Positions 7,636 to 24,389 of a stretch of 42,044 nucleotides of DNA are shown here, one piece after another. Below the pieces are notes generated by a model that worked only from the letters and a program-made list of their open reading frames with translations, was not told where the DNA came from and searched no databases. A program made the translations under genes and the position numbers. Each line of letters opens with the position of its first letter. Position 1 is the stretch's first letter. The stretch lies in assembly GCA_040904625.1 (NCBI GenBank), contig JBBDTC010000105.1, positions 1 to 42,044 of the forward strand, in the 5' to 3' direction. The stretch comes from Gammaproteobacteria bacterium. GTDB taxonomy: Bacteria > Pseudomonadota > Gammaproteobacteria > Ga0077536.

Positions 7636-9873
7636 TCAGCTGAACCCCTGCTCGCGGCGCGACTGGGCTTCGCGCACCGCCTGCAGCGCCACCCGCGGCA
7701 TGTCGCGCCGGTCGCGGGCCATCTGCGCCTCTATGCGGGCCATCCCCTCCCTGTCGGCGCCGCGGGCGTCGATCTGCGGGCTGTAGTGGATCACCACCGG
7801 GCTGCCGCCGCCGGACGCCTCGACGCCGAGTCGGCCGCCGGCGCCGCGCTTCAGCGGCATGATGGCCTCCGGACCCGCCTCGCCCATCAGCCCGGCGCCG
7901 TTGGCCATCGGAAAGAACGTCGGGCGATCGACGACGCCTCCCCCCAACACTCCTCCCAGCCCGAAGGCATGCACGTGGCCGGCGCTGAAGACGTTGCCCA
8001 GAGCGCTGGGCACGATGTTGGTCGGGGCGCCGCCGCCGAACAGGCTCCCGGCCACCGAACCGAGCAGCGTGCCGAAGATCCCGGTTCCGGAGCTGCCCTG
8101 CTTGCCGAGCAGAACGTCGAGCAGATCGTTGGTCGCCAGTTCCGCCAGCCGGTCGGCCACGCGCACCAGCGCGTTGGCGAAGGTGTCGGCGATCGAGGCG
8201 CCCTCCTGGAAGCCCGACCGCATGTCCTGGAAGAAGCCGCGCGCCACGGCACGGTGGTCGTCGAGACGGTCGATGGCCGCCGCTTCCCTCTCGCGCGCCG
8301 TGATCAGGCCGCGCACCGCGGCTTCCTCCTCGGCCGTGGCGAAGGCGAGCGTGTCGCGCAAGCCGATCATCTCGCGCATCACCGGATCGGTGGCGCGCAG
8401 CATGTCGAGCTCGATCTGCAGTGCGCCCGTCAGGTCGCCGACCGACTGCCGGCCCGATTCCCAGGCGGCCTGGGCAGCCTCGCCCGCCTGGGCGGCGCGC
8501 GTCTGGGCCTCGGCGAATGCGTGGTTGCGCGCCACCAGGCCTGCGATGACCTGGCCGGCTTCGGAGTTCAGCGCCACGCCGGCCTTCTTGACGGCATCGA
8601 GCTGGGCCTGGGCGACTTCGGTGCGCCGCAGCGCCGCGGCCTCCTCCTCGAGGCCCTTGACCACCCCGTCGATGCGCCCCTGCGCGATCTCCTCCGCCGC
8701 CTTGCGGGAACGAACGTCGATGCTCTGGCGCTGTGCGCGGCCGAAGCGCTCGACCTCGTCGATATTGGCCTGGATGGCTTCCTTCTGCCGCTCCCACTCA
8801 CGAATTTGCGCATCGGCCCCCGGTAACCGGAGTCCGGTCTGAAGAGCCTTTTGCGCCGCTTCGATCTGGTCGATCTCCTGGCGCGCGTCGGCCAGGAACC
8901 CATTCATGCCCCCTTCGGAACTCATCGCGTCGTTGACGGCACCGACCCCGTCAGCGACCGCCTGCAGGCCGCCGGCCAGGTTGGTGATGTCCGCGATGCC
9001 CCCGCCGATGAGCTCGAACCACCGACCGGTGTTCTCGACCAGCGTATCGAAGGCGCCCGAAAGCCCGCCGGCGGCCGCGGCCCCGGCGCCGCCGACCTGC
9101 TGCTCGACCGCCTTGAGGATTTCCCGCTGGGCCTCCGCGGTGCGGCCGGTCTCGTTGAAGTTCCTGATCAGCTCGCGCTGCGTGGCGGTGAAGCTGATGC
9201 CTACCCGGCGCAGCGCCGTCAAACCCTGTTCGGGATCCTCCATCGCCTTGGCGAGCTGCACCGCCGACGAGGCCACGGTGCCGAAGCCGACGGCCGCCAG
9301 GTCCTGGGCCAGGCGCAGCGTGTCGTCGAAGGTCTCCCCGGCGATGGTGCGGAAGGTCAGCAGCTGCTGGGCGGCCTGGCGCACGCCGGTGGTGGAGGCG
9401 AGCGTGCCGAGGCCGATCTCGCGCGACAGCGTCTCGATGTCCTGCGCGGTGCGCCCCGCCGCGCCGCCGGTGGCGCGGATCACCTGCTGGGTGGTGAGCT
9501 GGGCGCGCTCGTATTCGGCGAAGGCGCGCACCCCGCGCTGGGCGGCAAACGTCACACCGCCGATGCCGATGGCAAGCCCGCCCATGGCCAGCCCCATCCG
9601 CCCCACGAGCATCCCGGTGGCGGACAGGCGCGAGGCTATGCCGCCAAGCGGGCCGTGCATCACCGCGACGGAACCGGCAGCATTGCGGAACGAGGCGGCC
9701 AGCCCCTGGTTGGCCCTGGTCAGCCCCGCGGCCTCGGCCGAGGTGCGGCGCATGCCCTGGGCGGCCGTGCCGGACTGGCGCCCCAGACCGCCGACGGCGC
9801 GCTGGGTCTCCTCGGCGGCCTTCCTGGCGCCCTCGGCGTTGCCGTCGATGACAAGGGCGAGGCGCAGTGTCAT
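7636..9873 (-). CDS. Tail tape measure protein
   Basis: 745 aa, Ala/Gly-rich and helical with hydrophobic glycine-zipper segments. It lies directly downstream of the frameshifted chaperone pair. Confidence 0.8.
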   Translation of the reverse strand: MTLRLALVIDGNAEGARKAAEETQRAVGGLGRQSGTAAQGMRRTSAEAAGLTRANQGLAASFRNAAGSVAVMHGPLGGIASRLSATGMLVGRMGLAMGGLAIGIGGVTFAAQRGVRAFAEYERAQLTTQQVIRATGGAAGRTAQDIETLSREIGLGTLASTTGVRQAAQQLLTFRTIAGETFDDTLRLAQDLAAVGFGTVASSAVQLAKAMEDPEQGLTALRRVGISFTATQRELIRNFNETGRTAEAQREILKAVEQQVGGAGAAAAGGLSGAFDTLVENTGRWFELIGGGIADITNLAGGLQAVADGVGAVNDAMSSEGGMNGFLADARQEIDQIEAAQKALQTGLRLPGADAQIREWERQKEAIQANIDEVERFGRAQRQSIDVRSRKAAEEIAQGRIDGVVKGLEEEAAALRRTEVAQAQLDAVKKAGVALNSEAGQVIAGLVARNHAFAEAQTRAAQAGEAAQAAWESGRQSVGDLTGALQIELDMLRATDPVMREMIGLRDTLAFATAEEEAAVRGLITAREREAAAIDRLDDHRAVARGFFQDMRSGFQEGASIADTFANALVRVADRLAELATNDLLDVLLGKQGSSGTGIFGTLLGSVAGSLFGGGAPTNIVPSALGNVFSAGHVHAFGLGGVLGGGVVDRPTFFPMANGAGLMGEAGPEAIMPLKRGAGGRLGVEASGGGSPVVIHYSPQIDARGADREGMARIEAQMARDRRDMPRVALQAVREAQSRREQGFS

Positions 9874-9886
9874 GGGCGCGCCCCGC

Positions 9887-10635
9887 TCACTCGTTCAATG
9901 CCTCGAGCGCCGCGGCTTCCATCACCTGGAGCCCGAGCCACAGCTCCCGCGTCACGGCGATGCCCGCCGCGTCGAGCCCGGCCCGGACGCCTGCATAGTC
10001 CAGTCCGATGAAGGTCAGCCGGGCAGGTGTCATGCCGCCGCCGAGGCTCTGCGTCCGCCACTGGCTGGAGATCCACAGGAAGGCGGCGACCGTTTCGGCG
10101 TTCTGAGGCCATACTCCCGAGCCGGGACCGGCGCGCACGGCGGCCGGCGCTCCCAGCGATTCGCGGATGGCGTCGAGCGCCTCCTGCGAAGCCCCCCCGG
10201 CGCGGGCATCCGCCACCGCCTCGGGCTCGTCGCCGGGAGCGCCGCCAGGCGCAACGGGTGAGCTGTCGCTCAGGCTGCCCGTCGCCCAGGCCCGGGCAGC
10301 CCATTTCAGTTTCCCCTTGCGGCCCCGGCGACCGCCTCGAAATACGCCCTGGCGAGCGCCAGCCGCGCATAGGGCAGCGCCAGGACCTGGTCGCGTACCG
10401 CGTCGGAATAGGGCACCGGCTTGCCGTCCTCGCCGGCGATATCGTCGAGGCGCTGGATGACGCGCTCCAGGAAGTCGCGTGTGCCCTGCCGGTCGTAGAG
10501 GTCGTAGCGGCCGGCCTCCTCGACGTCGAGCACGCAAAAGGTGGCGCTCAGCGTCTCCTTGCGGTGGCCGCCGTCGGCCGGCACCAGCACCTCGACGGAG
10601 CGGGTGAAGGTGGGATTGGCATCGAGCTTGAACAT
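9887..10635 (-). CDS. Tail assembly chaperone, -1 frameshift fusion product (GT-like)
   Basis: The frame downstream of the slip site has no start codon of its own but encodes a DUF1799-like segment (VWPQNAETVAAFLWISSQWR...FIGLDYAGV...ELWLGLQVME). Confidence 0.6.
10306..10635 (-). CDS. Tail assembly chaperone (G-like, 109 aa)
   Basis: MFKLDANPTFTRSVEV..., with an AAGGAG Shine-Dalgarno sequence upstream of the ATG at 10633-10635. It lies between the tube and tape-measure genes. Confidence 0.7.
   Translation of the reverse strand: MFKLDANPTFTRSVEVLVPADGGHRKETLSATFCVLDVEEAGRYDLYDRQGTRDFLERVIQRLDDIAGEDGKPVPYSDAVRDQVLALPYARLALARAYFEAVAGAARGN
10309..10315 (-). promoter_or_regulatory. Programmed -1 ribosomal frameshift heptamer G GGA AAC
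   Basis: A canonical XXXYYYZ heptamer read as G-GGA-AAC in the zero frame, immediately before the TGA stop (10306-10308). Lambda G/GT uses GGGAAAG. Confidence 0.6.
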
Positions 10636-10734
10636 GGGGCTCCTTCGGGGTGTGTGGTTGGTGGCGATGGTAAGTAGTGAGTGGGAGATGGCGGCCGGGC
10701 GAAGCATCCCTATTCACCACTCACCACCCACCCC

Positions 10735-11670
10735 TCACGTCAGCGTGATCGTGAACTGATCGTCGCCGGAGTCGAACTTCGGGCTCAAGCTGAGCGGCCA
10801 CTCGACGATGCCCTGCTGGTTCTCCAACCCGGTCATGCGCTGAACCTCGCACTTCGGCGCGGCGATGGTGGAGATCTTGCCCGCAGCGGTGCCGTGGGTG
10901 ATGCTCACAGCGACTTCCGTCTTGTCCTTGGCCGCGGCGAACGGGTCGAAGGTGGTGAGCGGTACCGCCTCGACACTGGCCGAGATCACCTCGGCGCGAT
11001 CGACGATCAGAATATCCTCGCGCCCGATGAGCAGCCGCGGCTGTACATCGTTGGCCAGGTCGAGCTGGAAGTTGCGCAGCACCAGGGACTCGCCCCCGAC
11101 CGTGAAGGCCGGCGTATTGGCGTGGCTGCCGACGATCGGCGCCTCGAAGCCCGACAGGTCGGGCGTGACGCGCGTCTCTTCCGACGGCGCGACATAGAGC
11201 CCGGTGAAGGTCCAGCGGATGCGCGGCACCCCTTGCGCCGGAATCTCGATGACGCCCGTTCCGCGGGCCCCCAACAGGACGTGCCGGGTGCCGCCCTTCC
11301 AGAAATAGAAGGTGGCGCTCTCGTGATCGTCCGACACCGGGTTGTAGACCACGTCGACGCCCGCCTGGGTCGTTTCGGCAAGCGCGCAGGCCCGCGCCAG
11401 CACGCCCCATTTGGGCGCCGTGCCGGCCGTGCCGGAGCCCACCAGCTCGGTGGCGCCTGAGAGCACCGCCCGGACGGCCGCCACCAGCGTGCCCTGGTTG
11501 CCGAGCTGGGCGAACTCGAGCTCGCGGCCAACGTCCTCGCCTTCCTGGGGGCGCAGCTGCACGTCCGTCATCAGCATGCCGTCGCTACCGACGGGCTCGG
11601 CGTCGGTGCCGTAGGTCGTCTCGATCTTCGCGAGTGCAATGGTCGAGCGCCACTTGATTGGGTCAGGCAT
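10735..11670 (-). CDS. Major tail tube protein
   Basis: 311-aa ORF directly upstream of the chaperone pair. The composition looks beta-rich. Confidence 0.6.
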   Translation of the reverse strand: MPDPIKWRSTIALAKIETTYGTDAEPVGSDGMLMTDVQLRPQEGEDVGRELEFAQLGNQGTLVAAVRAVLSGATELVGSGTAGTAPKWGVLARACALAETTQAGVDVVYNPVSDDHESATFYFWKGGTRHVLLGARGTGVIEIPAQGVPRIRWTFTGLYVAPSEETRVTPDLSGFEAPIVGSHANTPAFTVGGESLVLRNFQLDLANDVQPRLLIGREDILIVDRAEVISASVEAVPLTTFDPFAAAKDKTEVAVSITHGTAAGKISTIAAPKCEVQRMTGLENQQGIVEWPLSLSPKFDSGDDQFTITLT

Positions 11671-11839
11671 TGGACGATCCCTCCTTCACGCCCTTGCCTT
11701 TCTGCCCGCCTGCTCCTTGCGGAGAGGGGGTGGGGGGAGCTGCCGGGCGCTCCTTGCGCGGCTCCGTCCACTGCCGCCGCTCGAGCTTGCCGTCCTTGCG
11801 AGCATACGAGCCGCCCTTCCTGGGTGTGGTTCTGGTCAT
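11663..11839 (-). CDS. Small basic 58-aa protein carrying a degenerate copy of the GC-rich element
   Basis: MTRTTPRKGGSYARKDGKLERRQWTEPRKERPAAPPTPSPQGAGGQKGKGVKEGSSNA. The ATG forms an ATGA overlap with the upstream stop at 11836-11839. It is below the ORF-track cutoff as a stand-alone ORF. Confidence 0.4.
   Translation of the reverse strand: MTRTTPRKGGSYARKDGKLERRQWTEPRKERPAAPPTPSPQGAGGQKGKGVKEGSSNA
11705..11740 (+). repeat. Degenerate fourth copy of the GC-rich hairpin element
   Basis: ctgctccttgcggagagggggtggggggag shares the GGGGGTGGGGGG tail and a CTCC-TTGC-GGAG hairpin with the copies at 27881, 36209 and 37891. Confidence 0.45.
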
Positions 11840-12276
11840 GAGGCGATCCTCAGCTGGTCCATGAGTGAAAAATCGATCTGGTAGATGACTGTGCCGGCGT
11901 TCACCGAAACGAGCCGCCCGCGCCGGGCGACGAACACGCCGATGGCATCGTCCGGCGCCCAGCCGGCGATCGCCGCCACGACGGCGTCCTTGAGCTGGTC
12001 GACCGTGGCGAGCGCCCGCCTGGCGCGCGGGTCGCCGGCGGCCTCGACGAACAGGATGACGCCGACGGTTTCGGTGGTGGACTGGCGGTAGAGCCCGGCC
12101 GCGGCGTCCGGGGTGCCACCGTCGAAGCCGAGCGGCACGACGAAGGCGGCGGGATTCCGCTGCGGCAGTGCCCCGGTGCTGACGAGGACGGCGAGGTCGG
12201 CCACCTCGTCGACTCGGCCGGTCAGCGCCGTCACCTCCGCCTCGAGGCGCGTCTTGATGTCGGAGACGAGCGTCAT
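11836..12276 (-). CDS. Neck / tail-terminator protein (Mu gp37-like)
   Basis: 146 aa starting MTLVSDIKTRLEAE, with an ATGA overlap at 12273-12276. Its position after the G homologue fits. Confidence 0.5.
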   Translation of the reverse strand: MTLVSDIKTRLEAEVTALTGRVDEVADLAVLVSTGALPQRNPAAFVVPLGFDGGTPDAAAGLYRQSTTETVGVILFVEAAGDPRARRALATVDQLKDAVVAAIAGWAPDDAIGVFVARRGRLVSVNAGTVIYQIDFSLMDQLRIAS

Positions 12277-12782
12277 GGTGCGGCCCCGGTCCCGGCTTCG
12301 TCGTCCGCGATCCAGTCGCGGGCGATCGCCAGGATCTCGGTCTCGTCGTCCTCGTCGATGCCAAGGAACGGCCGGGCCGGGATGGTGACCTGCTGCTTGG
12401 TGGCCCACTGGCCCCCCACCTTGAAGCGCAGGCCCTTCGATGTCTTGGCCGTGATGGTGCCGCCCAGCTGGTGGATGGCGGCGTAGAGCACGTTGGTGCC
12501 GACCTCGACGCCGGACTCGGTGGCGTTGTGGGTTAGCGACTGTACGAGGATCCCCGAAACACGCAGTGTCGGGCGGCCATCTCCAAGGAGTTCCCGAATG
12601 GCCGGCGGCCAGGGGCTGCCGTCCGGGCCCTGCTTGCGCTCGAAGCGACGCTGGGTCGACACGACCAGGCGCGCGCCGATGTTGTCGAACATGCCGCGCG
12701 GGTTTGAAGCCCGTTCGACATAGCCTTGAAGGGCCTCCAACGCCTCGTCCTGGCCGGTGACCTGGATGCGCGCCCCGTCCAT
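12273..12782 (-). CDS. Virion morphogenesis protein (Mu G / P2 S family)
   Basis: The signature VGTNVLYAAIHQLGG...IPARPFLG is typical of the family. Confidence 0.7.
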   Translation of the reverse strand: MDGARIQVTGQDEALEALQGYVERASNPRGMFDNIGARLVVSTQRRFERKQGPDGSPWPPAIRELLGDGRPTLRVSGILVQSLTHNATESGVEVGTNVLYAAIHQLGGTITAKTSKGLRFKVGGQWATKQQVTIPARPFLGIDEDDETEILAIARDWIADDEAGTGAAP

Positions 12783-14037: not shown

Positions 14038-14931
14038 TCAGGCCAGCCAGGGAACGACGAGCAGCTCCGCGGTGCCCTTCCACTCATTGGTCTCGCCGCC
14101 CGAGGCGTTCTCGGAGTTGAGGATCTTGCGTGCGGCGCTCTCCAGCGACGGCGGCACGACGAGCAGGTTGGGCATGAGGCCCAGCGGCCGGCCGTAATCG
14201 CCCTTCATGCCGCTGAGCGCGGCCCGCGCCGTGGCGTAATTGGCCGCGTTGAGCGTCTGCTTGGAGCCCCAGGCGAACTGCCAGAAGCCGAAGCCCACGT
14301 TGCCGCGGGCGTCCGCGCCGTAGACGAACTCCTTGTTGGTGAAGACGTTGTCGTCGGTCAGCTTGTCCTTGGCGACGAACTGGAAGTCGCGGCGCTTCTG
14401 CAGGATCACCGGCTTGAGCACGCGGGAAGCGTCGATGAGGAACCAGGGCGTGCCGGCCCCGCCGTCGGTGTTGGCGACCGAAGTCTCCGCGCCGTTTGCG
14501 TCGAGCACCGGGTGGTCGGTGTCGAAATAGGGCTGGCCGTCATAGGCGAGCTCGGTGAAGCCGTTTTTCAGGTGGGCGAAGGCGAGCGTGTCCCAGTGCG
14601 CGCCGGTCGACTGGCCCATTTCGGTGAACAGCGGCGTGTAGATGCCGAGGTTGTCGGTCTCGATGTCGTCGCGGTCGACGCCGATGGTCAGCTCCCACGG
14701 CTTCTCCTTGATGGCATAGTCGTGCTGCTGCAGGTTCTGCACGGCGCGCGGCCCGATCCATTCGCGGACGTTGGGGATCTTGCCGAGCCAGCCGTACTTC
14801 TGCTCCTTGGCGGACGACGGGACGATGGTGGCGATGCGGGTGTGCATCGTGGAGGCCATCGCCAGCCCGCCCTGGAAGCTGGTGGAGAAACCGACGCGCA
14901 GGGCGTCGAGGTTGGCGGCATTGACGAGCAT
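14038..14931 (-). CDS. Major head subunit (Mu gpT family)
   Basis: 297 aa, with ...KYGWLGKIPNVREWIGPR... and ...LLVVPWLA typical of Mu-like gpT. It lies after the protease/scaffold gene. Confidence 0.8.
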   Translation of the reverse strand: MLVNAANLDALRVGFSTSFQGGLAMASTMHTRIATIVPSSAKEQKYGWLGKIPNVREWIGPRAVQNLQQHDYAIKEKPWELTIGVDRDDIETDNLGIYTPLFTEMGQSTGAHWDTLAFAHLKNGFTELAYDGQPYFDTDHPVLDANGAETSVANTDGGAGTPWFLIDASRVLKPVILQKRRDFQFVAKDKLTDDNVFTNKEFVYGADARGNVGFGFWQFAWGSKQTLNAANYATARAALSGMKGDYGRPLGLMPNLLVVPPSLESAARKILNSENASGGETNEWKGTAELLVVPWLA

Positions 14932-14995: not shown

Positions 14996-15412
14996 TCAGA
15001 CGATGCCCAGCTTGACCCAGACGCCGTTGTCGTCGACCTGGACGACCTTGCCGGCGACGGAGCGGGCACCGGTGTCGTCGGTCTTGGCCACCGTCTGGTC
15101 ATCGACGATGTAGCAATCGTCCCCGATCTCGGCGGCGGTGATCTCGTCGGCGCCGGCGGAGTTGGCGAACTGGAAGACGCCGCGCCGGACCCTCACCTTG
15201 ACGTCGCCGGCGGCACCGTCGGTGTTGTCCACCCGCTCCTCCGCCCGGCCCACGGTGACGAGGGTGGTGGCGGTCGCGCCAGGCGTGGCGAAGCCGGTGG
15301 CGCTCAAGGCCACGATCGCCCCGGCATAGATCAGAGCAGCGGCGGCCACGCCGTACGATTCTACGTCGCCGTCAGCGCGCGGCGTGTTGCGGTCAGCAGT
15401 CAGGGCGGGCAT
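14996..15412 (-). CDS. Head decoration-like protein (DUF2190-like)
   Basis: 138-aa beta-rich ORF between I/Z and T. Its start shares one nucleotide with the I stop (TGATG). Confidence 0.45.
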   Translation of the reverse strand: MPALTADRNTPRADGDVESYGVAAAALIYAGAIVALSATGFATPGATATTLVTVGRAEERVDNTDGAAGDVKVRVRRGVFQFANSAGADEITAAEIGDDCYIVDDQTVAKTDDTGARSVAGKVVQVDDNGVWVKLGIV

Positions 15413-16014
15413 CAGGCGGCCTCCTCGGCATCAGCGGCCTCGGCCGCCAGGGTTTTGGCGTAAGCTCCCGGGTCGATCCCGAGGAGCTTGGCGGCGGTGC
15501 GGTGCTCGGCGTGGAGCGAGACATTGCCGTCCTTGTCCTTCGCCGGCGGCGCGATCGTCGCGCCCGAGTGGCCGAGGATCGGGAACGCGCCGATCTCCTT
15601 CTCGACGCGCGCCGGGTCGGCCGCGTGCATGGCGATGTAGTGGTCACGCAACGGCTTGACGCCGACGCGCCCCCTGGCGATCTCGCCGTCGACGAAGGCG
15701 GTGGCCTTGTCCGTGGCGCCGGCGGTACGCAGCTCGTTGAGCTGGGTGGTAACGGTGGCGAGCTCCGCCTGCAGGGCGGTGACGGCTTCCCCGTGCCTGT
15801 CGGCGCCGGACCCATTCGCGGCGAGCGTCGTGACCGCATTCAGCACGGCATCCTGGTCGGCGTCTTCCTTGAGGCCGGCGGCCTTGGCGATCGGCGCCAG
15901 GGCCGACTGCAGCGACGTCGAACCCTTCAGCTCGCCGACGGAGTGCAGCACGGCGGCTTCGTCGGCATCGGCGGCAAGCCCGAGGGCCTCCCGCAGCTTC
16001 GTGAGCAAGTCCAT
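15412..16014 (-). CDS. Nested scaffold protein (gpZ-like), in-frame internal start
   Basis: Internal ATG at 16012-16014 (MDLLTKLREALGL...) preceded by a GGAGGA Shine-Dalgarno sequence at 7-nt spacing. The C-terminal half is helical and Ala-rich. Confidence 0.5.
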   Translation of the reverse strand: MDLLTKLREALGLAADADEAAVLHSVGELKGSTSLQSALAPIAKAAGLKEDADQDAVLNAVTTLAANGSGADRHGEAVTALQAELATVTTQLNELRTAGATDKATAFVDGEIARGRVGVKPLRDHYIAMHAADPARVEKEIGAFPILGHSGATIAPPAKDKDGNVSLHAEHRTAAKLLGIDPGAYAKTLAAEAADAEEAA

Positions 16015-16584
16015 CTTGGAATCCTCCAGTTCGGAGTTGAGCGCGGCCAGGCCGCGCAGGTTTGGGCGGTTGGTTAGCGCGGCCCGCAGGATGCCGGTCA
16101 CGCGATGATGGCTGGTGTGGGTGATTGCCGGAGAGATGTGCCGGTAGGCCCGGTCGGACATCAGCGCCTTGCCGGCGGCCGTCCATTCGACCCGCCCCCA
16201 GATGCCGTCGTCGCGCGCCTGCAGATCCACGATCCAGCCGCGCGCCGGCGACGGGCCGCCCTGGGGCGCGGCGAGATCGGTGGAATGGTTCTCGTCGATC
16301 GGCAACCGTCCGCCGGCGGCCTGGAGGCTCGATGCGGCGAGCTGGGCGGCGTCGGTGACGCGATAGGGACCGCGGCCGTCGACAGTGATGACCATGTCGG
16401 CCGGCAGCAGATGGACCCACTCGGGCGCATCACGATGGCCATCCGCGCCGGCGGCGACGTCGGGCAGCGCCACGGCCTGGCATAGCGCGGCCCGGTCGGT
16501 CGCCCGATCGGTCACCACGTCGGCCGCGGCGTGCAGTGCCACCTGGAGGGCGGGGAGGCCGGGGATTGCGTTGAAGCGCGTCAT
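15412..16584 (-). CDS. Head maturation protease / scaffold (Mu gpI family)
   Basis: WVHLLP...GRGPYRV...LPIDENHS...GWI..L..R.DGIWGRVEWT..G matches Mu I-type proteins. I chose the ATG at 16582-16584, because the longer GTG-started ORF (16635) would read through the upstream palindrome. Confidence 0.75.
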   Translation of the reverse strand: MTRFNAIPGLPALQVALHAAADVVTDRATDRAALCQAVALPDVAAGADGHRDAPEWVHLLPADMVITVDGRGPYRVTDAAQLAASSLQAAGGRLPIDENHSTDLAAPQGGPSPARGWIVDLQARDDGIWGRVEWTAAGKALMSDRAYRHISPAITHTSHHRVTGILRAALTNRPNLRGLAALNSELEDSKMDLLTKLREALGLAADADEAAVLHSVGELKGSTSLQSALAPIAKAAGLKEDADQDAVLNAVTTLAANGSGADRHGEAVTALQAELATVTTQLNELRTAGATDKATAFVDGEIARGRVGVKPLRDHYIAMHAADPARVEKEIGAFPILGHSGATIAPPAKDKDGNVSLHAEHRTAAKLLGIDPGAYAKTLAAEAADAEEAA

Positions 16585-16618
16585 GTGGGCAATATCGGGA
16601 TTGCAGGGGCTGCCCATA

Positions 16619-16638
16619 CCGGTGACGCGCGTCACCGG
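16619..16638. promoter_or_regulatory. 20-bp perfect palindrome CCGGTGACGCGCGTCACCGG upstream of gene I (putative late-activator site)
   Basis: Its centre is about 44 bp upstream of the I start codon. A near-identical palindrome (one mismatch) sits about 45 bp upstream of the endolysin start. Both are followed by the block ATCCCGATAWTSCCCAC. Confidence 0.5.
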
Positions 16639-16768: not shown

Positions 16769-16796
16769 GAGGCCCGGCCCCCAGCCGGGCCTCTTT
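16769..16796 (+). terminator. Strong GC hairpin terminator at the island / I-operon boundary
   Basis: GAGGCCCGGC-CCCCA-GCCGGGCCTC followed by TTTG on the plus strand, with an A-tract on the other side. It lies between the stop of the 392-aa gene and the PI region. Confidence 0.6.
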
Positions 16797-16829: not shown

Positions 16830-18008
16830 CTAAGGCTTTGCCAGCAGGCGCGCCACCAGCGCTGACAAGGAAGCGTCAGGTGCTCCCTCATCCTTCACAA
16901 TGCCGTCCGCCGACGGCCGAAACAGCGGAGCCAGGACGAGTGCCCGATCGCTCCTATCGAGTTCCTGCTCCTTGACCAGGGCAAGGAACGTCTTGACCAT
17001 CGCGATCCGCTCCAGCGCATCGATCCGCAGGTGGTGAGCGCTCAGGAAGAGGCGCACCAGGATGCGCCCGATCCAGAACAGGATCGTTGTGCCCAGGACA
17101 AAGAGTGCAGCGGAGACGATGAGCAGATTTGGACTTTGCGTCGGCTCCGTCGCGATTAGGAGGGGGATCACCTCAACTCCCGCTCCTATGCCGGCCAGCA
17201 GGGCGATGAATGCAAATGCGACCACAGACCAGGTCAGCCACCAACGCGAGGTGGCGTAGAGGGTGGCCTGTTGTTTCCAATAGTCGACAGCCGCCGCCAG
17301 TTCCATATGGGATGCATAGAGCTCGTTAGTGGAATTGATCCTGTCGATGCTTTCCTGGATCTTCGTCACCCAGGACTCCCGAAGCTCCTTTTCGAGCGCA
17401 ACCAGACGAGCCTGGCTTGCCTCGAGCTGCTCTTCCAATTCCTTCTTCTGGGCCGCCGCTTCCGATTGTGCATTGGCCAGGTGGTCCGCGGATATGTCGG
17501 CGATCCGTTTTAAGGAGCGCCAGATATCGTCCGGTGTGTTCTGGCCCACGCCCCCGTCCAGCATGGCAGCCTCGACCGCGCCACGGATGACCGCCAGGGG
17601 AGCTCGACCGCTATCAAAACGCAGCTTACCCATGCAGGCGGCGACTGCGCATGCAGCAACGTCGTGCAGATCCGCCTGCACGAGGCGGTCGGCAACTTGC
17701 CAGATTGGATCCGTCGACATCGGGTACCGCTTCCGCTCGTAGAGTTCTTTGAGCCGATCCGTCACCTGCTTTTCGTGTTCGGGAGTCTTCTGCCACTGGC
17801 GGATGTCCCCCATGGCCGCGTCCAAGAGGCCACGGAACTCCTCCTGAAAGTTGTCGGTGTAGTCGCGGACCGTTTGGACACGCCGGTGGCGTATCCATTC
17901 CCACGCGTCCATCTCCTCCTGCATCCACCGTTCTGCGGCGGCGGGTGATTCGAACACGAGTGGGGCCGCCCGACCGACATCGATGGAAAGCGCTTTGTTC
18001 TGCGACAT
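16830..18008 (-). CDS. Accessory membrane protein, 392 aa (soluble N-domain, coiled coil, two TM helices, amphipathic tail)
   Basis: ATG at 18006-18008 with a GGGGGA Shine-Dalgarno sequence. Coiled coil QKKELEEQLEASQARLVALEKELRE; TM helices WWLTWSVVAFAFIALLAGIGAGV and LLIVSAALFVLGTTILFWIGRILV. Its composition is lower in GC than the phage genes. Confidence 0.75.
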   Translation of the reverse strand: MSQNKALSIDVGRAAPLVFESPAAAERWMQEEMDAWEWIRHRRVQTVRDYTDNFQEEFRGLLDAAMGDIRQWQKTPEHEKQVTDRLKELYERKRYPMSTDPIWQVADRLVQADLHDVAACAVAACMGKLRFDSGRAPLAVIRGAVEAAMLDGGVGQNTPDDIWRSLKRIADISADHLANAQSEAAAQKKELEEQLEASQARLVALEKELRESWVTKIQESIDRINSTNELYASHMELAAAVDYWKQQATLYATSRWWLTWSVVAFAFIALLAGIGAGVEVIPLLIATEPTQSPNLLIVSAALFVLGTTILFWIGRILVRLFLSAHHLRIDALERIAMVKTFLALVKEQELDRSDRALVLAPLFRPSADGIVKDEGAPDASLSALVARLLAKP

Positions 18009-18204
18009 TGGTCCCCCGCGGTTGCTCCGTCCTGAATAGCCCATGCTGCGCGATCAAGCACCCCATCGAAGGGGTTTTAGGCAGCCGAGGCGGGGCCGGG
18101 CGTGCGAATCGGTTCATCGTCCGGCGGTGGCATTTCGGCGTTAATCATATCCTCAGGTAGTAGATAGACTATAGCATCGGGGAAAACGCCGTCGGGGGAC
18201 TGGC

Positions 18205-19392
18205 ATGAACCGGCTGTACTTCGGTGACAATCTCGATTGGCTGCCGCAAATAGAAATCGGCAGCGTCGATCTCGTGTACCTGGATCCGCCCTTCAATCGG
18301 CAGGCCAGCTTCAACATCCTCTACAGATCTCCGAGCGGCGATCAAACTGCCCAATACAGGGCCTTCGAGGACACCTGGCGGTGGGGCCCGGCGAGCGACT
18401 ATGCCTTTGCGCATGTGAAGCAAAGCGGATCACCAGCATTCGACACCCTGGTTTCGCTGAACAACTACATGCAGAAGAGCGATCTCATGGCCTACCTGAC
18501 CATGATGACCGCGCGGCTGCTCGAGCTGCGCCGGGTGCTGAAGCCGTCCGGCAGCTTGTTCCTCCATTGTGACGCCAGCGCCAGCCACTATCTGAAGATC
18601 ATTCTGGACCAGATCTTCGGGGCCGGCACCTTCCGCAACGAGATCATCTGGCGGCGGTCGATGGGCAAATCGCTCATGACCCGCCGCCTCCCGACGAACC
18701 ACGACGTCATCCTGTTCTATTCAGGTGACGAGGCCGTCTGGAACGGGGATCACGCGTTCGCAGCCTATGACGTCGACGACCTTCCCACGAAGGCCGCAGC
18801 AAAGTACGCCCAGAAGGATGCGGACGGGCGACGATATCAGCTCACGAGCCTGATCAATCCCAATCAGAACAGGCCCAATCTGACGTATGAATTCCTTGGC
18901 GTCACAAAGGTCTGGCGCTGGACGCAGGAGCGAATGCAGGCGGCGCACGAAGCAGGGCTGATCGTTCAAACTGCGCCGGGTCGCGTGCCGCGGTTCAAGC
19001 GATATCTCGATGAACAGCGGGGCCTGCCTCTTGACGACGTCTGGACAGACATCCCGCCGATCAATTCGCAGGCGCAGGAGCGGCTCGGCTATCCGACGCA
19101 GAAGCCATTGGCGCTTCTCGGGCGCATCATCAAGCTGGCCACGAATCCGGGTGACGTAGTGCTGGATCCGTTCTGTGGGTGCGGTACAGCAGTCGAGGCG
19201 GCACAGAAGCTCGGGCGGAGATGGATTGGAATAGACGTGACCGTGCTCGCGATAGATCTTGTCGAGAAGCGGCTACGCCGACTGAAACTCGAGCGCGATG
19301 CTGATTACACGGTCGAGGGCATCCCACTGGATGTGGACGGTGCCCAAGCCTGTTCGAGTCTGATCCGCACGCGTTTCAGCTTTGGGCTCTAA
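18205..19392 (+). CDS. Beta-class N4/N6 DNA methyltransferase (catalytic domain intact, 3' end out of frame)
   Basis: Motif IV DLVYLDPPFN precedes motif I VVLDPFCGCGT. GGGGGA Shine-Dalgarno sequence before the ATG at 18205. The last approximately 14 codons (CSSLIRTRFSFGL) look like out-of-frame read-through. Confidence 0.8.
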   Translation: MNRLYFGDNLDWLPQIEIGSVDLVYLDPPFNRQASFNILYRSPSGDQTAQYRAFEDTWRWGPASDYAFAHVKQSGSPAFDTLVSLNNYMQKSDLMAYLTMMTARLLELRRVLKPSGSLFLHCDASASHYLKIILDQIFGAGTFRNEIIWRRSMGKSLMTRRLPTNHDVILFYSGDEAVWNGDHAFAAYDVDDLPTKAAAKYAQKDADGRRYQLTSLINPNQNRPNLTYEFLGVTKVWRWTQERMQAAHEAGLIVQTAPGRVPRFKRYLDEQRGLPLDDVWTDIPPINSQAQERLGYPTQKPLALLGRIIKLATNPGDVVLDPFCGCGTAVEAAQKLGRRWIGIDVTVLAIDLVEKRLRRLKLERDADYTVEGIPLDVDGAQACSSLIRTRFSFGL

Positions 19393-19958
19393 CTCTGGTG
19401 GACGGTCAGCCGCGCGAAGGGGGAAAGCGCGGTGCGGACAGAGGTATTGATGGCCTGCTGTACTACATGGAGGACGCCAAAACGGCCAGGCGAGCGATCA
19501 TCTCCGTGAAAGGAGGCAGGAATATCCACGCCGAGCACGTCCGCGATCTGATCGGCACCATGCATACGCAGGGCGATCAGCTCGGGCTGATGATCACGTT
19601 GCACAACCCCACCGATGCAATGGACAGGGCGGCAAAGGAAGCGGGCACGCTGGAGGCTTTCAACAAGCCACGCCCAGCGGTTCAGATCTTTACAGTGGCG
19701 CAGCTTCTTGCTGGCCTCAGGCCGAACCTGCCGCCCGTGCTTGACATCATCGCAACTGCGGCAGCGGCCAGACGGGCCTCTGCAAAGAAGGCTCCGAAAG
19801 CCCCGACGCCCGCGGACATCCGGAAGTCTCCTCCACTCAAACTGCCAATCACCGGCGGCCGATCTCGCGAACTTCAAGACGTCTTGGACATAGACGATCC
19901 TCTGCTGGTTCAGCAGCAGGATGACGCGGCAGCAAAGCGGGGCCGCCGGCGCGCATAG
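19305..19958 (+). pseudogene. Mrr-type PD-(D/E)xK nuclease domain displaced into another frame from the methyltransferase
   Basis: The frame is open from 19305 and reads ...LFESDPHAFQLWALTLVDGQPREGGKRGADRGIDGLLYY...AIISVKGG (D...GIDG...xVK motif). It has no convincing Shine-Dalgarno sequence of its own; the listed ORF starts at the GTG at 19398. Confidence 0.6.
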
Positions 19959-19993
19959 GCTGTCTGACCGATCTTGATGCCTCGCCGCCATGA

Positions 19994-20105
19994 TAATCCC
20001 GCCGTCAAAGGGGTTTTGAAGGGGCTGGGGGGCCAAAGGCGGCTCCGGTGCATCCACCGGGCCTCCAAGCCGCCCGGAAGCCGCTGTGGGCGTTCTGTGC
20101 GGCTC
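19994..20105 (+). repeat. Copy X of an intergenic repeat of about 110 bp (34-bp perfect core)
   Basis: TAATCCCGCCGTCAAAGGGGTTTTGAAGGGGCTG (19994-20027) is identical to 24409-24442. About 75 further bp align imperfectly. Confidence 0.8.
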
Positions 20106-20216
20106 GCCCGGAGGCGGTACTTCGCCTCGCATCCCATCACAATCGGCCGCTTTGATGGACCGCCTGCCACACAGGTCGTATGGTGGTCCTGCGACCATCG
20201 CGGAAAGGAGTCGACA

Positions 20217-20438
20217 ATGCCGTTCGCTCCGTACCAATCGAGCTTCAACTCCGATTCTCTCAGGATTCTTCAAGAGGCATTCGACCAGGCCTGGGCCGAG
20301 GTGGCGGCCTCGCCCAGCGTCACACTCGACGAGCAGGCCGCGCGCAACATGATCGCCAATCGGATCGTGCACGCCTGGCGCGACCAGGGCGAACGCGACC
20401 CGGAGCGGCTGAAGCAGCACGCTGTCGAGGGGCTGTAA
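20217..20438 (+). CDS. Small 73-aa helical protein of the accessory island
   Basis: AAAGGAG Shine-Dalgarno sequence 6 nt before the ATG at 20217. MPFAPYQSSFNSDSLRILQEAFDQAWAEV... resembles small orphan proteins common in Rhizobiales. The longer ORF-track version (19974) lacks a ribosome-binding site. Confidence 0.6.
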   Translation: MPFAPYQSSFNSDSLRILQEAFDQAWAEVAASPSVTLDEQAARNMIANRIVHAWRDQGERDPERLKQHAVEGL

Positions 20439-20462: not shown

Positions 20463-21179
20463 CTAATCGCCCCGCCGGCGGGCGAGCTCCTCGCGCAGAT
20501 GCTCGTCCAGCGGCGCGCCGGGCCGATAGGCGAAGCCCGGGTCGATCCCCTGCGGCACGCGCACGGTGGTCGGACCTTCGGCGGTATTGATGCGCCGCTC
20601 GACCAGCGGCGACTCCGGGGTCTCCGATACCGTCAGTCCGAAGCGCTCCACGTCGCGGGCGTTCAGCGACTGGGCCAGGCAGCGGCAGTTCCAGCCGTTG
20701 GGCGGAAAGTGCGTCTGCCACCACGGGTCGTCGGCCGGCAGCACTGTATCGTGCCAGGCAGCGTGCTGCGGCCTGGTGCGCGCATCCATCACCGCGACAT
20801 AGCGGATGTAGGGGCGCTGCTCCTTCACCCGCTGGATCTGCTCCCAGCGCCCCGCCGCATAGGCCATGCGCAGGTTCGTCTGGAAGATCACCCGGGACCG
20901 CCAGTTGCGCCCTCCCTTGTAGCTCCAGCCGTACCGCGCCACGATCTCATCGAAGTCCTCGCGGAACTGGGCCAGCGTGCGGCCCTCCTCGAGCGCCGCC
21001 AGGACGGCGGCATGGAAGTCCGCGATAAGGTCCTGGCTTTGCGCCCCGGCGACCACGAAGGCGGCCGAATGCATCTCCTGCCAGATGTCGGTCCAGGTCC
21101 GCGTCGGGATGTCGAGCTTGCGGCGCAGGAACTCGATCGCCTCGGTCGGGTTGGCCGCGAAGGGCTGGGCCTCAGGCAT
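20463..21179 (-). CDS. Mu F-like minor head / morphogenesis protein (gp30 family)
   Basis: The signature RTRPQHAAWHDTVLPADDPWW...PPNGWNCRC is typical of the Phage_Mu_F family. Confidence 0.8.
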   Translation of the reverse strand: MPEAQPFAANPTEAIEFLRRKLDIPTRTWTDIWQEMHSAAFVVAGAQSQDLIADFHAAVLAALEEGRTLAQFREDFDEIVARYGWSYKGGRNWRSRVIFQTNLRMAYAAGRWEQIQRVKEQRPYIRYVAVMDARTRPQHAAWHDTVLPADDPWWQTHFPPNGWNCRCLAQSLNARDVERFGLTVSETPESPLVERRINTAEGPTTVRVPQGIDPGFAYRPGAPLDEHLREELARRRGD

Positions 21180-22731
21180 CGGCGCTCGCGATCTCGTCGC
21201 GCCCCGCTAGATCGGCGAACAGCATGGCGAGCCCCATCGCCGTCGCCAGCTGATCGGAGGGGAGCCCAAGGTCGAGGATCGCCTCGCGTACCTCCTCGAG
21301 GCTCTGAGCGACGTCGATCAGCCCGCGAATCGTGTCGATCATCTCATCCATAGCCGGCTGCGCGTGCGCTTCGGCCGCCGCGGCCAGGCCGTCCAGCCCG
21401 TCGCGCGGCGGCTTCACCTCTTCCGCCTGCAGCGCCTGCTTGCCCTCCTGCGGGGCGGGTCCGGGGAGTGGGGCAACCGGCGCCGCCCGCGCCTCCAGGA
21501 CCTCGGCATCGGGATCCGGATCCGGCAGCCCGAACTTGTCGCGGATCACGCTCGCCTCGACGCGCAAGCCGAGCGGCACCAGCTTCGCCAGCGACTCGGC
21601 GAGCAGCTTCAGGTCCTCTTCCTCGGGCCGGCCGATGCGCAGCCGCGGATAGACCTTCTGCGGCCCGAACTCGAGATCGATCCACGGCCGCACCAGGTCA
21701 CGGTTGAGCACGGCCGCAAGCGCTTTCGCGTCGGCCCGCTCGATGTCCTCCTGCACTTGGCGGTGCTCCTGGCCGACGGCATGGCCGCCGGCGATCGCGT
21801 CCGTCGTGGCGGTCTGGCCCAGCACCGCCTTGGAGACCTGCCGGTCGAGCCAGTCGGCACGGCGCTCGTAGAGATCCATGGAAGAGCCCACCGACTTCGA
21901 CTCGATAAACTCGATCAGCATCGACTCGGGGATGATCGCCGCGCAGTCGCCGGCGATGTTGGCCACCGCCCTGAACAGGGTGTCCTTGTCGGCCTCGGTG
22001 GCGCCGGCGCCGTATTTCCCGACGCGGATCGGCTGGCCATAGGTCTGGGTGAAGATCGCCCAGTCCCTGAGGGTGAAGGCCTTGAACATCCACGACCAGG
22101 CGGCCAGCCGCGCGATGCCCGATCGCACCGGCAATCCCGACTTGGACCGAATGATCGCCTGGATGAACTTGAAGGCGGGCAGCGGCTGGTCGCCCTCGTC
22201 GGTGCGCAACAGCGGCGTGGTGCCGTCATGCCGGTCGAAGCGGAACCAGCGCGGGTCGCGCCACTCGAGGCGGGCGGGGCGCCACTGGCCGGCGCTCGTG
22301 TCCCAGATGATCTCGGTGAGGCTCGTCCCCTTGCCGATGGCGTCGAGGATATCGAATATCTCGTCCTGCAGCTGGTCGCGCAGCAGCCAGTCGCGCACCA
22401 TGTCAGCGTGGCGCACGTGCTCGGGCGCGTCCGACGCCGCGTCCACGGTGATGTCGATCTGCGCCACCGAGCGCCGGCGGGTGCCGAGCACGCCGGCATA
22501 ATGCAGGTCGCGCTCCTCGATCTGCTCGGCGAGCTCAAAATAGCGCAGCGGCTCGCCCTGGTCGGCATCGCGCAGGATGTGCGCTAGGCGCAAGGGGTTG
22601 AGGCCGTCGCCGGGATAGCCGGAGATGACCGAGCGCACGCCGGTGATCGTCGGTCCGGCGACTTCCTCGGTGAGTACCTCGCGCCGGATCGGCTGGCCAT
22701 CGGGGCCGAGCAGCTGGGGTTTGGTCGCCAT
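21172..22731 (-). CDS. Portal protein (Mu gp29 / DUF935 family)
   Basis: The start MATKPQLLGPDG shares one nucleotide with the TerL stop (TGATG at 22729-22733). 519 aa in the conserved position. Confidence 0.8.
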   Translation of the reverse strand: MATKPQLLGPDGQPIRREVLTEEVAGPTITGVRSVISGYPGDGLNPLRLAHILRDADQGEPLRYFELAEQIEERDLHYAGVLGTRRRSVAQIDITVDAASDAPEHVRHADMVRDWLLRDQLQDEIFDILDAIGKGTSLTEIIWDTSAGQWRPARLEWRDPRWFRFDRHDGTTPLLRTDEGDQPLPAFKFIQAIIRSKSGLPVRSGIARLAAWSWMFKAFTLRDWAIFTQTYGQPIRVGKYGAGATEADKDTLFRAVANIAGDCAAIIPESMLIEFIESKSVGSSMDLYERRADWLDRQVSKAVLGQTATTDAIAGGHAVGQEHRQVQEDIERADAKALAAVLNRDLVRPWIDLEFGPQKVYPRLRIGRPEEEDLKLLAESLAKLVPLGLRVEASVIRDKFGLPDPDPDAEVLEARAAPVAPLPGPAPQEGKQALQAEEVKPPRDGLDGLAAAAEAHAQPAMDEMIDTIRGLIDVAQSLEEVREAILDLGLPSDQLATAMGLAMLFADLAGRDEIASADA

Positions 22732-24389
22732 CAGATGCTCCCTCTCAATCCTACCCCATAGGGCTGGCGCCACCAGGCGCGGCTCTCGGAGCCGTCCTCG
22801 TCCGGCCCGCCGGCGGCGCCGCCGCCGGGCTGGACGGTCGCCGAGCGATAGCCGTATTCGTGCCATTGCATGCGCGATGCGAAGTGGGCGAGCGCCAGCG
22901 CGATGGCATAGTCGCCGTGGCGCTTCTTGCCCTTCTCGCCCTCGCGCGTCGCCGGCACCATCGGGATGCCCCTGATGGTCTTGACCAGGCGCAGGTCGGA
23001 CAGGTGCTCGGCGTCGGGCGCAATCGCGATCGCGTCATCCTCGAAGGCCACCTTCAGCGGCGGCATGTGCAGGCGATACCACTCCTGGGAGAACTTGATC
23101 GCCCAGACGAGGCCGCCGCTCGTCTCGTCCTCGCGCAGCCCGAACTTGCGGCCCATGTCTTCGGCCACCGTCCAGCCCATGCCCGTGGCGTCGAAGGCCG
23201 CGCCGACGAGGCGCGAGCGCACCCGCTCCAGCACCTTGGCCACGATCTGTTTCTGCTCGTCGCCGGGCACGCCGCGCAGCTCGAAGGTGAGGGCGCTGCG
23301 CCGCCGCAGCGGCTTCTCGATCGACAAGAGTTTGCCGACCGACAGGTCCGCCACGCGGGCGAAGTCGAAGCCGAAGGCATAGAGGGGGGCGAGGTCGAGC
23401 CCGTCGAGCGCCGCCTCCAGCTCCTCCATGAAGGGCGCGAGCAGCGACTGGCGCTCCAGTTCTGGCCGCTGCAGGAAGTCCGGCGGTAGCTCGAGCCTGA
23501 GGATCGGCGCGTCGGCCGTCATGCGCGCCTCGATCAGCGGGCCCGACAGCCAGGCGCCCGAGCCCAGCGCCGGCACGCAGAACAGCTCCTCGTCGGCCGC
23601 CTCGCCGTAGAAGTCGATGATGTCCTGGCGCCAGGCGGCCTCGCTTTCCGCCGTCCACTCCGCCCCCGTCACCAGGCAGATGCGCTGGTAGAGCCCCTCC
23701 ATCAGCGCCTGGTCGAAGTCGATGCGCATGTGGTCGTACTTCGACCGGCCGCCGAGGATGTCCTGGACCAGCTCGTTGAAGTGGTTTTCGGAGCCGTTGT
23801 GGGTCGAACACACGACCACCTGGCCGCCCCACATGAGGAAGGCGAGAGCGGCCTTCAAAAGCTCCTTGAGCGAGTCGACGAAGGCGGCCTCGTCGATGAT
23901 CACCAGGCCCTGCTTGCCGCGCAGGGTGCGCGGCGCCGAAGACAATGCCAGCACCTCGAAGCCCGACGCGAAGCGGATCCGGAACGCCTGGATGGCGCGG
24001 TCGCCGGTCTCGTCGCTGTCGTCGAACAGGAACTCCTCGGCCGCCAGGGCCGCCATGTTGTAGGCCCGGGCCCACATGGCGCAGGCGTCGACGAACTCCC
24101 GCGTCATCTCCTGCGAGTAGGAGATGTACATGGCGTCCATGCCGCCGGCCGCCTTGGACCGGGCGGCGCGCAGCACCGCATGCGCCCCGAGCCCCCAGGT
24201 CAGCCCGATGCGGCGCGACTTCTCCACCACCAGCACGCGGGTGCCGGCGGAGTCGAGCAGCCCCACGGCGCGCTGCTGATAGGGCAGCAGCAGGTCCGGC
24301 AGCCCGACCTGCTCGATGACCTGGTCGAGGCCCGCGATCGACTCCCACCGCAGCGCCTCCCAGTCGGCTTTCGACAGCGGGGCGTTCAT
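22731..24389 (-). CDS. Terminase large subunit (Mu gp28-like)
   Basis: Walker-like VVEKSRRIGLTW and LVIIDEAAF, with a C-terminal nuclease region. The ATG at 24387-24389 is preferred over the GTG at 24396-24398. Confidence 0.8.
   Translation of the reverse strand: MNAPLSKADWEALRWESIAGLDQVIEQVGLPDLLLPYQQRAVGLLDSAGTRVLVVEKSRRIGLTWGLGAHAVLRAARSKAAGGMDAMYISYSQEMTREFVDACAMWARAYNMAALAAEEFLFDDSDETGDRAIQAFRIRFASGFEVLALSSAPRTLRGKQGLVIIDEAAFVDSLKELLKAALAFLMWGGQVVVCSTHNGSENHFNELVQDILGGRSKYDHMRIDFDQALMEGLYQRICLVTGAEWTAESEAAWRQDIIDFYGEAADEELFCVPALGSGAWLSGPLIEARMTADAPILRLELPPDFLQRPELERQSLLAPFMEELEAALDGLDLAPLYAFGFDFARVADLSVGKLLSIEKPLRRRSALTFELRGVPGDEQKQIVAKVLERVRSRLVGAAFDATGMGWTVAEDMGRKFGLREDETSGGLVWAIKFSQEWYRLHMPPLKVAFEDDAIAIAPDAEHLSDLRLVKTIRGIPMVPATREGEKGKKRHGDYAIALALAHFASRMQWHEYGYRSATVQPGGGAAGGPDEDGSESRAWWRQPYGVGLRGSI

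Follow-up and report, generated by a model that had tools for sequence, protein, structure and literature searches.

Here we show that a 392-amino-acid protein encoded on the minus strand at positions 16830-18008 of a metagenomic contig (the window, meaning the whole stretch of 42,044 nucleotides that was analysed) can be connected to AbiZ, an abortive-infection protein of Lactococcus lactis, by way of the Pfam family DUF6161. The window protein is almost certainly an AbiZ-family membrane protein. Our best explanation of the gene, to which we assign a probability of roughly 0.6, is that it encodes a single-gene AbiZ-family abortive-infection or superinfection-exclusion protein and was acquired horizontally as an insert of a Mu-like phage. 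That the protein serves anti-phage defence or exclusion in one form or another is a somewhat safer statement, and we consider it likely; that defence proceeds by holin-linked premature lysis, a proposal made by analogy with AbiZ, is tentative, and we rate it somewhat below an even chance.

In the original description of AbiZ, infected cells are said to lyse about 15 minutes early and to release a much smaller burst. Lactococcal AbiZ causes premature lysis and raises membrane permeability together with the phage holin, acting late, at lysis, and leaving adsorption unaffected (PMC13064643; PMC6356687). It is effective as a single cloned gene (PMC13064643; PMC11381338), and a 2026 review found neither a functional domain nor a structural relative for it (PMC13064643). 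A language-model study, available as a 2025 preprint, rated the DUF6161 proteins of Pseudomonadota as probable defence genes and stated that no homology to known defence proteins could be detected for those of proteobacteria (10.1101/2025.01.08.631966).

Family membership and the link to lactococcal AbiZ

The C-terminal half of the window protein (residues ~185-390) matches Pfam DUF6161 (PF19658) with an E-value of 3.4e-15 and a score of 56.5 bits against a gathering cutoff of 27, covering profile positions 20-214 of 216. The same 392-amino-acid product is present in the public protein collection (P0001), where PF19658 is precomputed for it, and all 30 of 30 close relatives carry the domain. 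The PADLOC model for AbiZ (PDLC02354) is matched with an E-value of 4.4e-16 and 57.2 bits, placing residues 187-400 of a 404-amino-acid form of the protein (see below) on model positions 194-396 of 398. Eight other family members match the AbiZ model with E-values from 1.7e-80 to 3.6e-08, and the members designated L050 and L003 (L numbers denote surveyed loci) reach its profile from positions 61 and 129, respectively. Searches of PHROGs and NCBIfam returned no family for the window protein.

The lactococcal sequence was reached from the family consensus through a DUF6161 protein encoded on a Lactiplantibacillus plantarum plasmid, which led to a protein of the Lactococcus plasmid pUCCL629C. 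The latter is a 432-amino-acid DUF6161 protein (WP_032398699.1) that fills the AbiZ model from end to end (552 bits). Its gene is separated by 1.6 kb from that of an integrase and by 2.4 kb from AbiA, and a LlaJI-type restriction gene follows farther out. The original paper reportedly places abiZ downstream of abiA on pTR2030, an arrangement like that of pUCCL629C. Genes identical to abiZ have been found in the pUCCL plasmid set, and AbiZ resistance was re-confirmed, in a study of the lactococcal plasmidome (PMC11381338). Because of the full-length 552-bit match, the AbiA and LlaJI-type neighbours and the AbiZ-identical genes in the pUCCL set, the pUCCL629C protein is probably AbiZ itself.

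A direct BLASTP comparison of the window protein with the pUCCL629C protein gives an E-value of 4e-14 over 214 columns (query residues 192-391, subject residues 234-431) at 21% identity. When the family is compared with the two Lactobacillales proteins profile to profile by hhalign, the probability is 97.9% and the E-value 6e-13 over the C-terminal 183 columns. The two transmembrane (TM) helices of the window protein align with two hydrophobic stretches of the pUCCL629C protein. Judged from these alignments, the window protein is a remote AbiZ relative of the same layout, detectable with public models, whose N-terminal half is not detectably related to that of AbiZ. Given how far L050 and L003 extend into the AbiZ profile, it is possible that this difference reflects divergence rather than a domain swap. 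The original prediction for this gene, made from the sequence alone, had likened the protein to abortive-infection or superinfection-exclusion effectors and had not recognised its family with confidence; the PADLOC, BLASTP and hhalign results bear out that likeness and name the family as DUF6161/AbiZ.

AbiZ of L. lactis (pTR2030; Durmaz and Klaenhammer 2007) and the window protein thus have several features in common: each is encoded by one gene of about 400 codons, and the layout runs from an N-terminal cytoplasmic domain through a long helix and a pair of membrane helices near the C-terminus to a conserved tail; their C-terminal ~200 residues are homologous; and both genes are borne by mobile elements near restriction-modification (R-M) genes. 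They differ in that the identity is just 21%, the N-terminal halves are not alignable, and the loop between the membrane helices is shorter in the window protein. The carriers differ as well, a phage in one case and a plasmid in the other, and the host of the window phage, judged from the closest phages, is a Gram-negative bacterium of high G+C content, in which lysis needs a breach of the outer membrane too. The Pfam entry itself, for which the NCBI annotation reads 'DUF6161 domain-containing protein', covers the C-terminal half only, is of unknown function, and includes neither the N-terminal domain nor the link to AbiZ.

Architecture, topology and conservation

AlphaFold2, supplied with 30 relatives, models the window protein as all-helical (mean pLDDT 77.7), with a single helix spanning residues 159-286. 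The parts described here are all encoded on the minus strand. Residues 1-158 (17535-18008) form a helical domain that is predicted to be cytoplasmic and that is modelled confidently on its own (pLDDT 86, pTM 0.79). A long charged helix follows (residues 159-254; 17247-17534), which in the model is continuous with the first membrane helix and which ends in a conserved juxtamembrane motif, M..L.A.V.YW..(K)A (residues 235-248; conservation 0.53). TM helix 1 (residues 255-288; 17145-17246) reaches a Kyte-Doolittle value of 2.29 in a 19-residue window. It is separated by the short, putatively periplasmic loop TEPTQSPN (residues 289-296; 17121-17144) from TM helix 2 (residues 297-322; 17043-17120), which is assigned from hydropathy and conservation and carries the conserved residues W312, R315 and R319. 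The protein closes with a conserved tail, predicted to be cytoplasmic, that forms the DUF6161 core (residues 323-378; 16875-17042) and is the most conserved region. Because R254 precedes TM helix 1, R315 and R319 flank the hairpin on its other side and the loop holds neither lysine nor arginine, the positive-inside rule predicts a hairpin with both termini, and hence the N-terminal domain and the tail, in the cytoplasm.

Most of the architecture proposed in the original prediction is recovered in this model, namely a soluble N-terminal domain (here ~158 residues), two hydrophobic helices (~255-288 and ~297-322) joined by a short loop of 8 residues, and a conserved-looking tail; the predicted topology adds the orientation of the hairpin. 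The heptad-rich coiled coil that had been placed after the N-terminal domain was not upheld. Crude tests of the a/d register in the long helix were no better than shuffled sequences (p 0.16-0.85), its hydrophobic periodicity peaks at 3.6-3.67 residues and not at 3.5, and AlphaFold shows a continuous helix in its place. Foldseek searches of the full model against the PDB and BFVD gave nothing at E <= 0.001, with only long-helix proteins and weak matches to two-TM effectors; the N-terminal domain likewise found no fold match in the PDB at E <= 0.001, and a sequence search of the PDB returned chance matches only.

An exhaustive profile search recovered 4,247 cluster representatives at E <= 1e-3, including 1,641 at E <= 1e-30. 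Among the best 150 representatives, 139 match nearly the whole profile, and the other 11 comprise nine shorter proteins (268-355 amino acids) and two of full length. A spurious open reading frame (ORF) is ruled out by this full-length conservation, which extends to all but 11 of the top 150. Conservation peaks in the juxtamembrane motif before TM helix 1, in TM helix 2 and, above all, in the 56 residues that follow it, and the N-terminal domain, the long helix and TM helix 1 vary freely across the family. Expressed as the mean frequency of the top residue, conservation is 0.71 for residues 323-346 and 0.63 for residues 347-378, against 0.30 in the N-terminal domain. The tail motif, LS..HL..DA.ER..M..T(Y/F)LAL ... 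DR.LVL.PLFRP..DG.VKD.G.P, aligns to IS.QHIS.EY.QK.ALT.YYLSM...EEK.LLLP.IFSK.DSGLIK of lactococcal AbiZ. The window protein retains 32 of the 34 positions that are conserved at >= 85% and, by this measure, looks intact. Conservation patterns suggest the variable N-terminal domain as a candidate sensing, partner-binding or specificity domain.

The 57 loci from a pattern-limited scan (one genome per species) come from Alpha-, Beta- and Gammaproteobacteria, Campylobacterota, Verrucomicrobiota, Bacteroidota, Planctomycetota, Myxococcota, Actinomycetota, Cloacimonadota and one candidate-phylum bacterium, and the taxonomic distribution of close relatives is patchy. One genome, that of a candidatus Porisulfidus (L063), holds two family genes 5 kb apart (3368-5113 and 10388-11749).

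Genomic context of the gene and its relatives

The window (1-42044) comes from a sediment metagenome, for which a search of sequencing runs returned no RNA runs, and represents a Mu-like transposable phage with its gene set on the minus strand. Among deposited phages it is closest to Rhodobacter phage RC1 and Rhodovulum phage RS1, with 54% identity in protein I and 75% in the capsid. The AbiZ-like gene sits in a 3.8-kb block of reduced G+C content at third codon positions (GC3 0.70-0.75, compared with 0.84-0.95 in the phage genes) between the genes for a Mu F-like head protein upstream (20463-21179, minus strand; Pfam Phage_Mu_F, E 1.4e-21) and the Mu-like protease/scaffold protein I downstream (15412-16635, minus strand; Pfam Mu-like_Pro, E 6.9e-51; 54% identical to RC1 protein I). 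The GC3 of the AbiZ-like gene itself is 0.74, and neither of the related phages RC1 and vB_ThpS-P1 has this gene. The slot is variable in relatives, in which it lies between genes G and I, with three small ORFs in RC1 and none in vB_ThpS-P1. When the gene is considered as a moron, its foreign composition and variable slot are both seen, and promoter and terminator signals of its own were not seen in the scan. No repeats bounding the insert were found, and no DNA similarity to RC1 was found upstream of gene I.

The insert also contains, on the plus strand, an N6/N4 DNA methyltransferase ORF (18205-19392; Pfam N6_N4_Mtase, E 1.4e-45) and an ORF with an Mrr-type nuclease domain (19398-19958; Pfam Mrr_cat, E 1.5e-07). 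Read by frame, the two (18205-19958) look like a single fusion gene split by a 1-nt frameshift near 19345-19350, the Mrr frame running upstream as ...LFESDPHAFQLWALTLVDGQPREGGKRGADRGIDG, directly after the methyltransferase ...DVDGAQA; either the gene is a pseudogene or the split is an error of assembly. A small putative plus-strand ORF (19974-20438, likely 20216-20438), of very low GC3 (0.43) and matching no family, borders the insert.

The neighbourhoods of relatives were surveyed at 50 non-redundant loci, taking from either side the two genes closest to the family gene, 174 proteins in all. ORFs were called with a score based on amino-acid composition; calling with a GC3 filter missed the family gene in 23 of 66 loci, owing to its foreign composition. 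In 27 of 32 genomes the GC3 of the family gene falls below that of distant neighbours (median difference -0.20). The association of the family with defence genes is strong in qualitative terms, as distinct from a measured enrichment, and takes several forms. In three independent contigs an hsdR-hsdM-hsdS operon of type I R-M has the DUF6161 gene at its 3' end, starting 22 bp beyond hsdS (L008 6770-8035; L077 6729-7994; L078 6568-7833), in what looks like one transcription unit, and a convergent DUF4411/M78-peptidase pair comes next. In five independent loci of BREX type 2 it lies between the genes for PglX and PglY, together with a Fic-type or MqsA-like gene (L003 10001-11242; L031 9803-11125; L037 6389-7624; L043 9956-11191; L048 9344-10612). 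A Variovorax relative adjoins HipA, Fic and H-NS genes, and other relatives are found beside a Schlafen/AlbA gene, near PemK, and beside DUF5710, DUF4411/M78 and WYL genes. Neighbours with PADLOC matches include (i) PglW, PglX, BrxC/PglY and BrxD, (ii) type I and type IIG restriction enzymes, (iii) SoFic/PDC-S24, and (iv) MADS, Gabija, Dsr1, dGTPase, PD-T4-6, PDC-M61 and SngB; Pfam matches add MqsA, AbiEii-type AAA_21, resolvase, VapE and DUF2971. Across the 50 loci no partner gene is conserved, and linkage to hsdS, PglX/PglY and Fic genes recurs.

Phages of several types carry the family gene as an insert in structural-gene clusters. Family members occur in five IMG/VR viral contigs, among which L073 (~9300-10546, plus strand) has the gene antisense between the portal and prohead protease/scaffold genes, L070 (3396-4556, plus strand) has it downstream of a CI-like repressor and beside a MuA-like transposase, and L072 (8897-10270, plus strand) has it as one of two genes of 40% G+C after the tail sheath and tube genes of a phage of 66-70% G+C. 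The original prediction had pointed to defence islands and prophage accessory slots as the places in which homologues should be sought, and it is in such places (operons of type I R-M systems, BREX loci, islands with toxin-antitoxin genes and insert slots of phages) that relatives are found. The close relatives do not look like housekeeping proteins detached from mobile elements, and only a distant Rhodobacterales variant, discussed below, lies in a cell-wall cluster.

Both Lactobacillales genes have small membrane type I toxins in their vicinity: a 'putative holin-like toxin' (L067 6391-6507) is encoded 150 bp downstream of the L. plantarum AbiZ-type gene, and a PepG1 toxin (L068 7191-7334) 1.3 kb upstream of that of Lactococcus. 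The proximity is suggestive given the cooperation of AbiZ with holins, and it may also be due to chance on plasmids.

Elsewhere in the window the phage encodes a MuA-type transposase (35993-38182), a MuB-like ATPase (35126-35917), a divergent CI-like repressor (40143-40565, plus strand), an endolysin with CHAP and peptidoglycan-binding domains (27364-28404), a portal protein (21172-22866) and the major head protein T, or capsid (14038-14931), and the gene set also includes Gp27 and a large terminase. A G-type morphogenesis protein is encoded at 12273-12782; in RC1 and RS1 the corresponding gene lies between F and I.

As to the gene itself, the ORF originally read on the minus strand stands, running from an ATG at 18008 to a TAG at 16832-16830 (392 amino acids plus stop), and so does its divergence from the methyltransferase gene (18205-19392), across a gap of 196 bp. 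A possible N-terminal extension of 12 codons, MGYSGRSNRGGP (18009-18044, minus strand), begins at the first in-frame ATG after the upstream stop, and the protein may thus be 404 rather than 392 amino acids long. The longer form starts MGYSG..., and an MGY(G/Y)G start occurs in 17 of 176 relatives. The claim that the gene has its own Shine-Dalgarno sequence holds in part: a GGGGGA is present (18012-18017, minus strand), but it is spaced only 3 nt from the ATG at 18008, and translation may start either at this codon or at the ATG at 18044, upstream of which the sequence has no Shine-Dalgarno motif. The divergent intergenic region (18045-18204) contains an A+T-richer patch with TATAGT, and no consensus match to a sigma-70 promoter was obtained there at the scan threshold. 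A terminator had also been claimed, and this we could not substantiate. A G+C-rich stem-loop with an 11-bp stem and a 3-nt loop (16769-16793, minus strand, from RNA folding) begins 36 nt after the stop codon; it has no T-run, was not reported by the terminator scan, and lies in a region that folds like its shuffles (z -0.49).

Proposed mode of action and competing explanations

On the topology predicted above, the helical hairpin would anchor the protein in the inner membrane, with the variable N-terminal domain and the conserved tail facing the cytoplasm. Extending the homology with AbiZ to function, we infer expression in the lysogen, the trigger, permeabilisation of the membrane and the protective phenotype. 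The protein would be harmless in the lysogen until a superinfecting phage reached late infection; it would then act together with the holin of that phage, or with some other lesion of the membrane, and bring about early permeabilisation, and the cell would lyse or die before progeny could be assembled. Early permeabilisation of the inner membrane is proposed because the part shared with AbiZ consists of the membrane hairpin and its conserved cytoplasmic flanks.

Two other types of membrane protein invite comparison. Effectors of the CBASS-type S-2TMbeta and SLATT classes are likewise small helical modules of the membrane, believed to make the inner membrane permeable in abortive infection; the Foldseek matches to viral proteins so annotated are, however, non-significant (E above 1), and the window protein has neither sequence similarity to them nor a cyclic-nucleotide synthase partner, and has a different conserved tail. 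In the RexAB system of lambda, the prophage-borne RexB is an inner-membrane protein with four membrane helices, proposed to collapse the membrane on superinfection, and it needs the sensor RexA. The window protein resembles RexB in being prophage-borne and, by prediction, located in the inner membrane, but no homology is evident (the PADLOC Rex models gave no match), and it has a large cytoplasmic domain of its own.

Several observations weigh against an AbiZ-type exclusion protein acting from the prophage. The gene runs in the direction of the late head genes, and the scan found no promoter consensus for it, which leaves its expression in the lysogen presumptive. A phage carrying it must avoid hastening lysis of its own host cell, and no element conferring self-immunity was found. 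The phenotype is known from the lactococcal protein and from no Gram-negative DUF6161 protein. Residues 1-190, the part in which trigger specificity may differ, were aligned to lactococcal AbiZ by neither BLASTP nor hhalign. A tblastn search with the window protein and the family consensus against 50,697 deposited phage genomes gave no match, and the immediate neighbours of the gene in the other viral contigs gave no PADLOC match. Finally, five Rhodobacterales genomes (Celeribacter, Pelagimonas, Aliiroseovarius) carry a DUF6161 variant of 511-552 amino acids in the dcw cell-wall cluster, between murC and murB/ddl (L040 9080-10633; L049 9050-10648; L052 9011-10669; L055 9125-10759; L061 8771-10306), a site that may be an insertion hotspot or may reflect a recruited envelope function. 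That variant is the one observation that favours a housekeeping or cell-envelope membrane protein free of any part in phage conflict. We regard such a role for the window protein as very improbable: the variant is homologous in the C-terminal half only and is itself foreign in composition (GC3 0.50-0.53 against 0.65-0.76 in its neighbours), the window gene is phage-borne, and its close relatives occupy mobile or defence contexts with a patchy taxonomy.

The recurrent linkage to restriction genes admits a different reading of the defence role, in which the N-terminal domain binds the methyltransferase-Mrr protein (elsewhere, a type I R-M or BREX type 2 component) and the membrane part fires when an anti-restriction protein disables that partner. 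PrrC, held by EcoprrI, is a precedent for such a guard-type effector. In general form, the DUF6161/AbiZ module would be a 'second-line' effector docking, through its fast-evolving N-terminal domain, on HsdS/HsdM, PglX/PglY or methyltransferase-Mrr proteins and permeabilising the membrane once a phage inhibitor had disabled them, a membrane-acting analogue of PrrC-EcoprrI. The position 22 bp after hsdS in three contigs, the position between PglX and PglY in five loci, the divergent arrangement with the methyltransferase-Mrr gene within one low-GC3 insert and the LlaJI-type R-M system near lactococcal AbiZ are all consistent with a guard. Yet one cloned gene suffices for AbiZ to act, R-M and BREX genes are missing within two genes of most relatives, the partner types are unrelated to one another, which clustering in defence islands explains better than a specific complex does, and the methyltransferase-Mrr gene of the window is apparently frameshifted. 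We therefore consider a guard unlikely, both for the window protein and as a generalisation to the module. If it were correct, the head-gene cluster of the Mu-like phage would house a compact cassette combining restriction with its guard.

About the same low standing is given to exclusion at DNA entry, in which the protein would block genome injection without killing the cell, as P22 SieA, T4 Imm and HK97 gp15 do. A prophage-borne gene, an inner-membrane hairpin with a short periplasmic loop and defence-type neighbours in relatives would suit such a protein; its periplasmic face, at just 8 residues, its exclusively cytoplasmic conserved residues, and the characterised homologue, which acts late at lysis with adsorption unaffected, argue against it. 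Less probable again is a role in the lytic cycle of the carrier phage itself, through lysis timing or holin function. Such a role would draw on the action of AbiZ on the lysis clock, on the position of the gene immediately upstream of gene I, in the orientation of the late head genes, and on the holin-like type I toxins near the two Lactobacillales homologues. However, the endolysin region (27364-28404) is 9 kb away, a distance that rules out membership in the phage lysis cassette; the gene is absent from RC1 and vB_ThpS-P1 and foreign to the phage in composition; most relatives lie on chromosomes, within R-M or BREX islands devoid of phage lysis genes; and the copy in L073 is antisense to the late genes.

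At the level of the window, the value of an AbiZ-family assignment is one of annotation, in that the gene is likely defence cargo of a Mu-like phage beside a methyltransferase-nuclease gene. For the family, it links proteobacterial DUF6161 proteins explicitly to lactococcal AbiZ at the level of sequence, and corrects the statement of the 2025 preprint that no homology to known defence proteins is detectable (10.1101/2025.01.08.631966). AbiZ belongs to a small number of abortive-infection proteins believed to target the timing of phage lysis, and its conserved core is the DUF6161 module, found in thousands of proteins across many phyla, phage-borne copies included. Comparison across these proteins offers a handle in the form of a few near-invariant cytoplasmic residues beside TM helix 2, with the variable N-terminal domain as a candidate determinant of specificity.

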